NCBI GenBank assembly: GCA_964291235.2
Contig: OZ219816.1
Coordinates: forward strand, 608,001 to 672,000
Length of the DNA: 64,000 nucleotides
Direction: 5' to 3'
From: Vicinamibacteria bacterium
Lineage (GTDB): Bacteria > Acidobacteriota > Vicinamibacteria > Marinacidobacterales > Marinacidobacteraceae
Shown here: one piece after another, positions 2 through 23,325 of the stretch
How positions within the stretch are numbered: the first letter of the stretch is position 1
Layout of the letters: each line of letters opens with the position of its first letter
Notes under the pieces: model-generated
The model's database searches: none
What the model saw: only the letters and a program-made list of their open reading frames with translations
Told to the model about the DNA's origin: nothing
Made by a program: the position numbers and the translations under genes

Positions 2-601
2 TTCGGGAGCCCGACGGAAGCGGGACTCGACTTCTTCGACGCCAAGGCGACCGTCGAGCACATCCTGGACGGCCTGCGGACGGCGGCGACCTTCCGGCCG
101 GTGGAGGCCTTCGGATTCCTCGCGGGACGCACCGCTGAAATCGCCGCGGCCGGGACCGTGGTGGGGGTCGTGGGCCAACTGCATCCCGAGGCCGCCGCCG
201 CGTTCGGGGTCGAACGGGACGCCTTCTTGTGGGAGCTGAACCTTTCCCGGCTGCTCGCGGCCGCCCCCGGCATGACGGCTCCGCCGCTCGCGGCGCCGCT
301 TTCCCGTCATCCCTCAGCCGTCGAGGACTTCGCACTGCTCGTCGGACCGGACGTCCTGGCGCAGGATCTGGTTCAGGAAGCCCTCGCCCATCCGCTGGTC
401 GTCGAGGCGCGCGTCTTCGACGACTACGTATTGAACGAAGCAGGCGGTGGGGTTGCCGGCGGCGCCCGGTCGCTCGGCATTTCGGTCCGCTACCAGGCGC
501 CGAACCGGACTCTGAACGAGAACGACATTGCCAAGGTGCGGCGCACCATCCTGAAACGGCTGAAGGCGAACCACGGTGCGGTCGTCCGGGAACGCGGCTG
601 A
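2..601 (+). CDS. pheT: Phenylalanine--tRNA ligase beta subunit, C-terminal part (5' truncated by window edge)
   Basis: Frame open from base 2: DFFDAKATVE...VGQLHP...LWELNL, then FDX-ACB anticodon-binding domain (EDFALLV...VFDDY...RSLGISVRYQAPNRTL). Confidence 0.9.
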   Translation, partial: FGSPTEAGLDFFDAKATVEHILDGLRTAATFRPVEAFGFLAGRTAEIAAAGTVVGVVGQLHPEAAAAFGVERDAFLWELNLSRLLAAAPGMTAPPLAAPLSRHPSAVEDFALLVGPDVLAQDLVQEALAHPLVVEARVFDDYVLNEAGGGVAGGARSLGISVRYQAPNRTLNENDIAKVRRTILKRLKANHGAVVRERG

Positions 602-21395: not shown

Positions 21396-21630
21396 GAGCC
21401 CATGGCAAAACCCGCGCCCCCCCACCGGGAGAACTGGCACTTCGCGGCGCGTAGCGTCGCGGGGGTGGGGTGCGGGGAGGGGTTTCCCCTCCCCGTGAAA
21501 GACGATGCTGCGAATCGCACAGCGATTCGCAGCATCAACTCGTGGTGAAAGCGCCCCGCACGCACGCAAACCACGGATTTGGTGCGCGAGATCTCCTGGG
21601 GCTCGTGCGGGGTGCTTTCACCACGGGCTG
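21396..21630. mobile_element. MITE-like element, divergent composite copy with nested inverted repeat
   Basis: Ends GAGCCCATGGCAAAAC / TTTCACCACGGGCTG flanked by TTAA on both sides; internal IR CGTGGTGAAAGCGCCCCGCAC...GTGCGGGGTGCTTTCACCACG. Confidence 0.7.
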
Positions 21631-21702
21631 TTAATCGCCCGCTACAATCCGAAGCATCGGGTGATGCGGGGGCTTCCTCCCGGCTCCGCCCCGATATCCG
21701 AA

Positions 21703-21993
21703 ATGTTTCTGTGGTTCGGGCTACCCGGCTCTCTCGTCTCCGGCGTTGCCGGCCTTGGGGCGATGCTCCAGCAGCGGCAGACGGTCGAGTTCGTCACTCT
21801 CCCGAACCCCGAGCCGCCCCGCGGAATCCTGACGCTGATCCTGGAGTCCTTCGCGCTTGCCGGGACACTCCTGCTGGGAACGGTGCTGGTCGGACTCGGT
21901 TTCGGACTCTTCCGAATCTGGCTCATCCGCCGGTATCCGGACAACCGCTTCAACGGAAGCGGACGGGACACTCCCCGGCTCGACCTCAGTTGA
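21703..21993 (+). CDS. Small hypothetical membrane protein
   Basis: Hydrophobic segment LILESFALAGTLLLGTVLVGLGFGLF followed by basic residues; stop overlaps the TTG of the next gene. Start uncertain. Confidence 0.6.
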   Translation: MFLWFGLPGSLVSGVAGLGAMLQQRQTVEFVTLPNPEPPRGILTLILESFALAGTLLLGTVLVGLGFGLFRIWLIRRYPDNRFNGSGRDTPRLDLS

Positions 21994-22406
21994 GCGCGGC
22001 GGCGGATCTCCGGACCCCCGACCCGGTTCCCCTGGTCATCTATGACGGGGGCTGAGGTTTTTGCACACGCGCCGCGGTCGCGGCGGCCCGTTTCGCCGGC
22101 GATCGGCCGATTCGGTTTGCCGCTCACCAGGAACTGACGGACGACCGGCTGGCCGAGCTCGGCATCTCGCGGACGGCATGTGAGAGGCGGGTCCGGTTCC
22201 GGGATCCACGAGGCCGCTTTCACGGCGGGGCCTTCGCCGTGAACCGATTTCTGCTCTACGCCGCGCCGCCGGGGCTCCCGGGGTTTCCCTCCCGGGCGCT
22301 CGCGCTCCTCTGCTACGCGTTCCCGCCGCTGCTCCTCGCCGAACTCCTCGCCTACGAACTCGTCGCGCGGAACCGCGACTGCCGTCTGCTCAATCCGTCC
22401 GATTAG
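21990..22406 (+). CDS. DCC1-like / DUF393 thiol-disulfide oxidoreductase, probable selenoprotein (TGA at 22053-22055 read as Sec)
   Basis: Manual translation through the TGA: ...LVIYDGG-U-GFCTRAA...FHGGAFAVNRFL...LAYELVARNR...; carries the family motifs YDGxCxxC and YxxVAxNR; 138 aa, TAG at 22404-22406. Confidence 0.82.
22056..22090 (+). promoter_or_regulatory. Putative bacterial SECIS hairpin
   Basis: CGCCGC-GGTC-GCGGCG (22070-22085); the loop starts 20 nt after the UGA and resembles the GCA-GGUC-UGC apex of the E. coli fdhF SECIS. Confidence 0.65.
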
Positions 22407-22446
22407 ACGGTATCCTGCCCCACCGACCTATCCGAGGAGATTTCCC

Positions 22447-23325
22447 ATGTCCCGCTTTCGTTCCCTGACCCTCGCCTGCGCTCCGCTGCCGCTCCTCCTG
22501 GCCTGTGGCGCCCCTCCCGCCGAGGCGCCGATGGCCCCCCCCACGGTCGCGGTGGACGACCAGCCGGCCGGGGAATACGTTCGTTTTGCCGGCGCTTCGG
22601 GCGGGGCCGCCTGGGGCCGTATCGAAGGCGAAGAGATCGTGGTCCTGGGCGCGGCTCCCTGGGACGGCGGGGCGCCCACCGGAGAGCGGGTGGCGCGTTC
22701 CGGCGCCCGCCTGCTGGCGCCTGCCGACCCCGGCAAGGTGATCGCGATCGGTCTCAACTACGCCTCCCATCTTGGGGACCGCGAGCCGGCTTCCTATCCG
22801 GGGGTCTTCGCGAAGCTGCCGACGAGCATCGTGGGGCCGGGCGACGCGATCGAGATGACCGATGATGCCGGCAACGTCCACTACGAAGGCGAACTGGTGG
22901 TCGTGATCGGCAAGACGGCGCAGGACGTCTCCGTGGACCAGGCCCAGGACTACGTCTTCGGCGTGACCGCGGGCAACGACGTGAGCGAACGCGATTGGCA
23001 GGGCGCCGACCTCCAGTGGTTCCGGGCGAAGGCCTCCGACACCTACGGGCCGATCGGGCCAGTGATTTCCCGCGGCGTCAACTACGACGACCTCGAACTC
23101 ACGACCCGGCTGAACGGCGAAGTCGTGCAGCAGCAGCGCACCAGCGACCTGATCTTCGACACCAGCGACATCGTGAGTTACGTGAGCCGCTACGTGACGC
23201 TGATGCCCGGCGATGTCATCTTCACCGGGACCCCCGGCACCACCCAGGCGATGAACGAAGGGGACATGGTGTCGGTGGAGGTCGAGACGGTGGGCGTGCT
23301 CGAGAACCCGGTCGCCCGTCGCTAG
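22447..23325 (+). CDS. Fumarylacetoacetate hydrolase family protein with lipoprotein-like signal
   Basis: AIGLNYASH, FAK, HYEGELVVVIG, GNDVSERDWQ, KASDT, GDVIFTGTP; N-terminal LLLAC; GAGGAG RBS. Confidence 0.9.
   Translation: MSRFRSLTLACAPLPLLLACGAPPAEAPMAPPTVAVDDQPAGEYVRFAGASGGAAWGRIEGEEIVVLGAAPWDGGAPTGERVARSGARLLAPADPGKVIAIGLNYASHLGDREPASYPGVFAKLPTSIVGPGDAIEMTDDAGNVHYEGELVVVIGKTAQDVSVDQAQDYVFGVTAGNDVSERDWQGADLQWFRAKASDTYGPIGPVISRGVNYDDLELTTRLNGEVVQQQRTSDLIFDTSDIVSYVSRYVTLMPGDVIFTGTPGTTQAMNEGDMVSVEVETVGVLENPVARR

Follow-up and report, generated by a model that had tools for sequence, protein, structure and literature searches.

The locus and its reading frame

We describe here a gene at 21990-22406 of a 64,000-nt stretch of DNA from a Vicinamibacteria bacterium (contig OZ219816.1, positions 608,001 to 672,000; the whole stretch is called the window), and propose that it encodes a DCC1-like thiol-disulfide oxidoreductase containing selenocysteine (Sec). 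The plus-strand frame has 138 codons and one internal stop only, the TGA at 22053-22055, and it ends with TAG at 22404-22406; when the TGA is read through, the product has 138 residues and contains ...VIYDGG-U-GFC.... An earlier reading of the bare DNA letters, referred to below as the original prediction, had described this read-through frame, its single TGA and a TTG start overlapping the stop of the upstream gene as TTGA, and all of these lie where it placed them (Table 1). TTG 21990 is the sole canonical start (ATG, GTG or TTG) between the end of the upstream gene and the TGA; an in-frame CTG is also present, 7 codons ahead of the TGA. In the related genes with an in-frame TGA, of which there are 15 with this one (the Sec-type genes, below), the N-terminal tail that follows TTGA differs in sequence and in length, from 21 to 27 codons. 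A listing of open reading frames (ORFs) under translation table 11 has no full-length gene here, and this frame yields only a 55-aa tail ORF. The TGA is also found in contigs from two samples, with 0 differences; among the sequencing runs listed for this stretch there is none of RNA.

Table 1. Positions of the features discussed, in window coordinates unless another contig is named
Feature	Position	Strand	Basis or remark
DCC1-like (PF04134) thiol-disulfide oxidoreductase gene, predicted selenoprotein	21990..22406	+	frame, Pfam match, orthologues
Start codon TTG	21990..21992	+	shares bases with the upstream stop, as TTGA 21990-21993
Predicted Sec codon TGA, residue 22, first position of D19-x-x-U22-x-x-C25	22053..22055	+	column comparison with orthologues
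TGC, Cys25, presumed resolving cysteine of UxxC	22062..22064	+	invariant in 27/27 orthologues
Candidate Sec insertion sequence (SECIS) core, 23-nt block identical in 15/15 Sec-type genes	22068..22090	+	longest invariant run
Hairpin, 6-bp G+C stem, GGUC tetraloop	22070..22085	+	CGCCGC 22070-75, GGTC 22076-79, GCGGCG 22080-85
C-terminal motif Y122-E-L-V-A-R-N-R129	22353..22376	+	Y122, A126, R127 and R129 invariant, E123 and N128 nearly so (27 orthologues)
96-aa small membrane protein gene	21703..21993	+	ORF; TGA stop 21991-21993 overlaps the DCC start
Fic/DOC-domain protein, 246 aa	20655-21395		PF02661, 29.6 bits; just upstream of the membrane protein gene
Peroxiredoxin, outside the window	G000:C2 ~1803978-1804631 (locus L072:179-832)		signal-like N-terminus

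Protein family and predicted fold

The assignment to the DCC/DUF393 group made in the original prediction is borne out by Pfam: the read-through protein matches PF04134 (DCC1-like) with E 2.1e-9 and 39.1 bits, above the cut-off of 27.8, over residues 16-129 and profile positions 1-107 of 113, so that the match extends across the TGA position. The active-site motif is D19-G-G-U22-G-F-C25. D19, position 22 and C25 do not vary among the 27 orthologues, except that the Sec clade has U where the others have the first C. The family's YxxVAxNR motif, as the original prediction gave it, is present as the C-terminal motif of Table 1, and is found in the relatives too. The NCBIfam curated models, selenoprotein models included, gave no match to the protein at E <= 0.1, and a sequence search of the PDB found no relevant entry and no solved relative.

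An AlphaFold2 model built from a 27-sequence alignment has a predicted local distance difference test score (pLDDT) of 77.4 and a predicted template modelling score (pTM) of 0.67. The order of its elements is a strand at 15-18, residue 22, a helix at 23-36, three more strands and three C-terminal helices. Residue 22 is thus placed by the model between strand 15-18 and helix 23-36, which is the active-site position of the thioredoxin fold. The 10 best Foldseek matches in the PDB are all glutaredoxin, thioredoxin or PDI, though all are weak (best E 0.046, template modelling score 0.34). Oxidoreductase activity of the DCC protein is predicted from its family.

How does the protein compare with its nearest kin? 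It resembles the Cys-type DCC1-like proteins in its PF04134 score above cut-off, in the D-x-x-[C/U]-x-x-C and Y-x-x-V-A-x-N-R motifs, in length and in predicted secondary structure. It differs from them in the predicted Sec at the first Cys, in the candidate SECIS lying within the codons of helix 1, and in that nothing links the DCC protein here to complex I. The window's genome also carries a Cys-type DCC1-like paralogue (G000:C1:476625-477032), 35% identical to the Sec form and lying inside a 486-aa open frame; the congeners carry the same paralogue in open frames of ~406-652 aa, possibly as a fused form.

Cysteine and predicted selenocysteine at one column

The read-through protein was searched in 61 genomes, the window's own and relatives. 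Orthologues were found in 27/27 other genomes of the same family, and outside the family in two genomes only. Within the genus, an in-frame TGA interrupts the gene in 15/15 congeneric genomes, the products being 72-85% identical to that of the window. The TGA falls in the same column in 15/15 full-length genes (the window's genome and 14 congeners), within ...IYDGG-U-GFC[T/A]RAAVAAARFA...; in the 15th congener (G015) the gene is split over two contigs, and the N-terminal fragment has the TGA. G015 was excluded from the codon, tree and alignment analyses. In contrast, 12/12 orthologues from six sister genera, at 49-66% identity, have TGC at this column. Homologues with TGA or Cys at the same column thus exist as the Sec-containing oxidoreductase of the original prediction would lead one to expect, and the TGA is no peculiarity of one assembly, as it is also present in three metagenome contigs.

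Wider searches gave the same picture. When 111 class-wide genomes were searched with PF04134 and every match was listed, a TGA-bearing match was found in 13/13 genomes of the genus; elsewhere there was just one, which scored below threshold and comes from an unpublished genome (G036), described below. The metagenome scan returned 53 loci, 50 with Cys at the Sec column and 3 with TGA, the latter from the same clade and 74-76% identical, and one of the scan's two patterns contained Cys, so that these counts are biased against other Sec forms; the other pattern was drawn on the C-terminal motif, [ALI][AG]YEx[VF]ARNR. Among 19 genome loci compared at the Sec column, 4 have Cys and the others belong to the Sec clade. 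Across the phylum, 220 of 401 genomes have a PF04134 match; the best 150 of the 256 matches include none with TGA and one with TAG, and since a stop that is read through lowers the PF04134 score, Sec forms could sit among the other 106. The tallies for the 61-genome, 111-genome and phylum-wide searches take in unpublished genomes (G036, G083, G209). One of these, G036, is the sole basis of the lead on a second DCC-like gene of Sec type; no other conclusion depends on them.

In a maximum-likelihood tree, with a midpoint root only, a branch with support 92/94 has the 15 Sec rows on one side, and these are nested among Cys rows. The tree fits one change from Cys to Sec, at the root of the genus.

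Two further in-frame stops were seen. In G036 (contig C298, ~106-555, minus strand; L126/L127) a distant DCC-like ORF, with 22.8 bits to PF04134 and hence below the cut-off, has a TGA where the first Cys of CxxC would be; a search of the order's 54 other genomes at E <= 1e-6 found no relative. A Sec form of independent origin is one reading of this ORF, an error or a contaminant contig are others, and as a weak candidate it hints that the Cys-to-Sec switch may have occurred more than once. The other, at ~1504 of metagenome locus L125, is a DCC homologue in which TGA stands at a position that is Trp in its close relatives (...PREG-W-ILYDGGC...); an error or a nonsense variant is the likely cause.

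Selection on both sides of the TGA

The 105 pairs of the 15 Sec-type genes were compared by the pooled Nei-Gojobori method, with codons numbered from the TGA (Table 2). The dN/dS ratio is low before and after the TGA; therefore the codons on either side of it are translated in one frame and maintained by selection, at odds both with a pseudogene and with the 85-aa product of the public gene calls.

Table 2. Pooled synonymous (pS) and nonsynonymous (pN) differences among the Sec-type genes
Codons	pS	pN	dN/dS
-9 to -1	0.374	0.047	0.094
+1 to +4	0.711	0.014	0.007
+5 to +11 (hairpin)	0	0	n/a
+12 to +31	0.447	0.069	0.107
+32 to +112	0.460	0.101	0.152

An invariant hairpin after the TGA

The original prediction had pointed to a hairpin, CGCCGC-GGTC-GCGGCG, with its loop 20 nt past the TGA. 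It is there as described, the TGA-to-loop gap being exactly 20 nt, and every one of the 15 full-length Sec-type genes has it without a single change. The constraint acts at the level of the RNA. At 22068-22090, 23 nt in a row are invariant; the next longest such run in the gene has 6 nt. Among 54 codons whose amino acid is invariant in the 15 genes and at least four-fold degenerate, 9 have the same triplet throughout; these comprise 7/7 consecutive codons inside the hairpin block, versus 2/47 outside it (Fisher p = 2e-7). The absence of synonymous differences within the block likewise stands against pS values of 0.37-0.71 in its flanks, and the same stretch varies freely in the 12 Cys-type orthologues. 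The minimum free energy (MFE) of the stem-loop is -10.8 kcal/mol and that of the 23-mer -12.2 kcal/mol.

The consensus for the bacterial SECIS (bSECIS) given in section 5 and the Fig. 2 legend of PMC13188914 has a loop of 3-9 nt, a stem of 4-16 bp, a G in the first loop positions, a spacing of 16-37 nt and an MFE limit of -7.5. With its 4-nt loop, 6-bp stem, leading G and 20-nt spacing, the hairpin agrees with every constraint of this model. RNAalifold, given 8 of the 15 Sec-type sequences, recovers the stem and the GGUC loop in the consensus. An Rfam search of 21500-22600, on both strands and at E <= 10, found chance-level matches only, the best with 19 bits against a gathering score of 70. 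The invariant 23-nt block with its hairpin is, as far as comparison of sequences can tell, the signature of a bacterial SECIS, to which SelB would bind.

The Escherichia coli fdhF SECIS, which has a GGUC apical loop and a bulged U in its upper stem, is likewise a hairpin within the coding sequence soon after the UGA, with the same GGUC letters at a spacing of ~20 nt. No lower stem is conserved here: the invariant block reaches 2 nt beyond the stem on the 5' side and 5 nt on the 3' side. A second contig, of 1319 nt, in runs X1 and X2 matches 22070-22105 with 5 differences, and therefore a similar Ala-codon palindrome exists elsewhere in the community or the genome.

Selenocysteine decoding capacity of the genome

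Can the host decode UGA as Sec? The window's genome (3.45 Mb in two contigs, 90% complete) has selA (498 bits, cut-off 268), selD (249.5 bits, cut-off 125), selB (285.7 bits for the N-terminal part and 311 bits when summed with a C-terminal part in the same frame, cut-off 242) and a tRNA-Sec (69.7 bits, gathering score 47) whose anticodon is given by ARAGORN as tca (UCA). The full set of genes on which the original prediction depended is thus present. All 28 genomes of the family have selA, and therefore the Sec machinery is older than the Cys-to-Sec switch. The selD match (G000:C1:1307759-1308700) sits in a 795-aa open frame that has no internal stop; SelD seems to be fused to another domain and itself to lack Sec.

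FdhA (TIGR01553) was searched for in the window's genome and was not found. A second gene with an in-frame TGA was found there, for a 217-aa peroxiredoxin (...DWTGG-U-T..., PF00578 78.5 bits) in which an 8-bp hairpin with the loop AGTT lies 37 nt downstream of the TGA. The peroxiredoxin is probably a second selenoprotein of the genome, and Sec decoding therefore appears to be in use. It came out of a genome-wide screen for a TGA with a hairpin and periodicity of G+C at third codon positions, which gave 1320 raw candidates and 8 after filtering; 7 of the 8 resemble ordinary stops between genes in the same frame, and the eighth is the peroxiredoxin. The filter is too strict to recover the DCC gene, so these 8 are no census of the selenoproteome.

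Public annotation and literature

The original prediction held that standard gene callers would miss this gene, and so they have. In the public collections this clade is represented only by unnamed C-terminal calls of 83-90 aa with no Pfam domain, which start at a Leu codon within ...DDQL/ARLG... and from which the active site is missing.

In the full-text literature, no paper found links 'selenoprotein' with DUF393, none of those listed links it with the DCC names, and none links 'selenocysteine' with DUF393, PF04134, COG3011, DCC1-like or YuxK, as far as the searchable texts extend. In the main text and Table 1 of the 2026 catalogue (PMC13188914) the terms 'DCC', 'DUF393' and 'PF04134' occur 0 times, as do 'DCC' and 'DUF393' in the main texts of BSepDB (PMC13326102), deep-Sep (PMC12013277), the GOS paper (PMC2398784), the 2022 review (PMC9312934) and the 2016 survey (PMC5029168). 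The published family lists, on which the original prediction had left the matter, thus do not name the family in their searchable texts. DCC1-like/DUF393 is apparently uncatalogued as a selenoprotein family, although supplementary lists may name it under another label.

Bacterial Sec proteins with a thioredoxin fold and a UxxC motif are of course well known: Table 1 of PMC13188914 has thioredoxin, glutaredoxin, a Prx-like thiol:disulfide oxidoreductase, and DsbA-like and thiol-disulfide isomerase-like proteins. Like these, the DCC protein has a UxxC motif, placed by the model at the start of helix 1, and an in-frame hairpin of bSECIS type after the UGA; as with these, Sec pairs with Cys in far commoner homologues and Cys-to-Sec conversion is the likely origin. 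It is unlike those of that table in that its family is PF04134 and that the Sec form is confined, within what was searched, to one genus.

Mechanism, alternatives and significance

What kind of protein is encoded at 21990-22406? We put at about 0.9 the probability that it is a DCC1-like redox protein of thioredoxin fold in which Sec, inserted by means of the hairpin SECIS, takes the place of the first Cys of DxxCxxC, and that this form had a single origin from a Cys-type gene. During translation, SelB carrying Sec-tRNA(Sec) would bind the hairpin at 22070-22085 by way of its GGUC loop, and Sec would be delivered to the UGA 20 nt upstream, so that the ribosome would continue to the end of the 138-aa protein. 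Sec22 would then act as the nucleophile, attacking a substrate disulfide or an oxidised thiol, and Cys25 would resolve the intermediate as a selenenylsulfide. The TTGA overlap would couple translation of the DCC protein to that of the upstream 96-aa membrane protein, its probable partner. The switch from Cys to Sec would have happened a single time, at the root of one marine genus of Vicinamibacteria (Acidobacteriota) whose family was by then equipped with the Sec machinery. The decoding mechanism is standard, and the case is an extension of known biology and no surprise.

Several observations weigh against this interpretation. The 15 genomes are close kin, so that the TGA and the hairpin represent one inherited state and not 15 independent events. 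There is no covariation (0 compensatory pairs in RNAalifold with 8 sequences), since the hairpin never varies. Taken alone, the 66-nt region 22045-22110 is no stabler than its shuffles (z +1.27; 185/200 shuffles fold at least as well), and its MFE structure omits the hairpin. In 6/12 Cys-type orthologues, too, the corresponding stretch has some hairpin that the loose bSECIS model accepts; because of this, and because the context is an Ala-rich helix at 68% G+C, a pass under the model is weak evidence. The candidate SECIS has no evident bulged U, unlike that of fdhF, its stem being a perfect 6-bp G+C helix. The predicted fold finds no PDB match at E <= 0.001 with Foldseek, the best match being glutaredoxin 2. 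Finally, insertion of selenium at residue 22 is something that we infer from comparing genes. What gives the hairpin its significance is its invariance and not its presence alone.

Might the TGA be a true stop, in a gene that is broken or split and whose functional product is the C-terminal fragment of 83-90 aa? That is what the public calls for the clade amount to, and table 11 offers no full-length ORF to set beside them. Yet upstream of the 85-aa call lie 9 codons ahead of the TGA and 31 beyond it, and for these the pooled dN/dS is 0.08 at a pS of 0.45, which means purifying selection amid plentiful synonymous change. A nonsense mutation would not last at one column in 16 genomes through up to 28% protein divergence, and the C-terminal fragment would be without the active site of the family, while the Pfam match runs across the TGA. 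We consider a broken gene extremely improbable. One might think instead that the TGA is read through, only not as Sec, either by a near-cognate Trp or Cys tRNA or by reassignment of TGA. This would by itself account for selection on both sides, and selenium at residue 22 is a prediction from sequence. However, TGA is an ordinary stop in these genomes: it ends the upstream gene, where it is conserved in the Sec clade, and it ends 6 of the 15 Sec-type genes themselves. Near-cognate read-through has no use for an invariant hairpin spaced like a SECIS, all the relatives examined have Cys at the column, making a classic Cys/Sec pair, and the full Sec machinery is present, so that we hold read-through of this kind to be very improbable.

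The block of 23 nt could also be conserved for a cause that has nothing to do with Sec: it might be a DNA-binding site or belong to an antisense RNA, or the codons of an Ala-rich helix might be under strong constraint. One would expect G+C-rich Ala codons to be readily palindromic, as the hairpins in half of the Cys-type genes and the similar contig in the two runs illustrate, and a hairpin that shows no covariation leaves room for such a cause. It is a cause that would have to follow the TGA clade exactly, for the invariance does so and is missing in 12/12 Cys-type orthologues. Nor can codon preference fix alternating GCC and GCG in 15 species while the other Ala codons of the gene vary. With position and loop that fit the SECIS model, and no known RNA in Rfam on either strand, we find an origin of the block outside Sec decoding hardly credible.

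If the gene at 21990-22406 does encode a Sec-containing DCC protein, the bacterial selenoproteome gains a protein family. We think it probable that PF04134 is a selenoprotein family absent from the published catalogues, that the Cys-to-Sec switch was recent and took place in a single genus, and that the Ala-rich codons of the active-site helix supplied its SECIS, in a stretch where sister Cys-type genes already tend to form hairpins; the sister genera, with the same machinery, keep Cys. A systematic annotation error would be corrected as well, as the clade's public calls that were seen are all unnamed fragments. There is also a lesson for searching: a generic SECIS model discriminates poorly in G+C-rich genomes, and the usable signal is invariance at synonymous sites across congeners. 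What does Sec buy a thiol oxidoreductase? The Sec-versus-Cys question is raised as open in section 8 of PMC13188914, and a Sec genus with Cys sister genera, all having selA, makes a clean comparative system for it, which would provide a closely matched natural pair of Cys and Sec orthologues together with a coupled membrane partner.

The upstream membrane protein and other neighbours

The 96-aa protein encoded just upstream has a hydrophobic N-terminus, a conserved VEF/YxTLPxPEPPRGIL, one long hydrophobic segment and a basic tail ...RRYPDNRFNGSGRDTPRLDLS. An ORF with the conserved tail, of 81-96 aa, is found in 26/27 loci of the family (the window and L024-L049). An alignment of 24 of these proteins has a mean column identity of 70%; it is without L045, where the upstream ORF was not found, and without L046 and L049, where no Met was found. 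Neither Pfam nor NCBIfam has a family for the 96-aa protein, and Pfam finds only a sub-threshold SLAC1 match in the whole ORF 21505-21993. An Atlas search with it returned hypothetical proteins of Acidobacteriota only.

The original prediction had gone further and suggested that the two genes are co-translated. Of this the part that stands is the 4-nt overlap of stop and start, which is TTGA in 15/15 Sec-type genes; in the 12 Cys-type genes it is GTGA in 4 and CTGA in 4. The conserved overlap points to translational coupling of the membrane protein and the DCC protein, and to a function that the two may share. In the four Cys-type orthologues with CTGA, translation would have to start at CTG, or to re-initiate with no canonical start codon. 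The other neighbours of the pair are hisF and genes for the Fic-domain protein of Table 1, a FAA-hydrolase family protein and an M20 peptidase.

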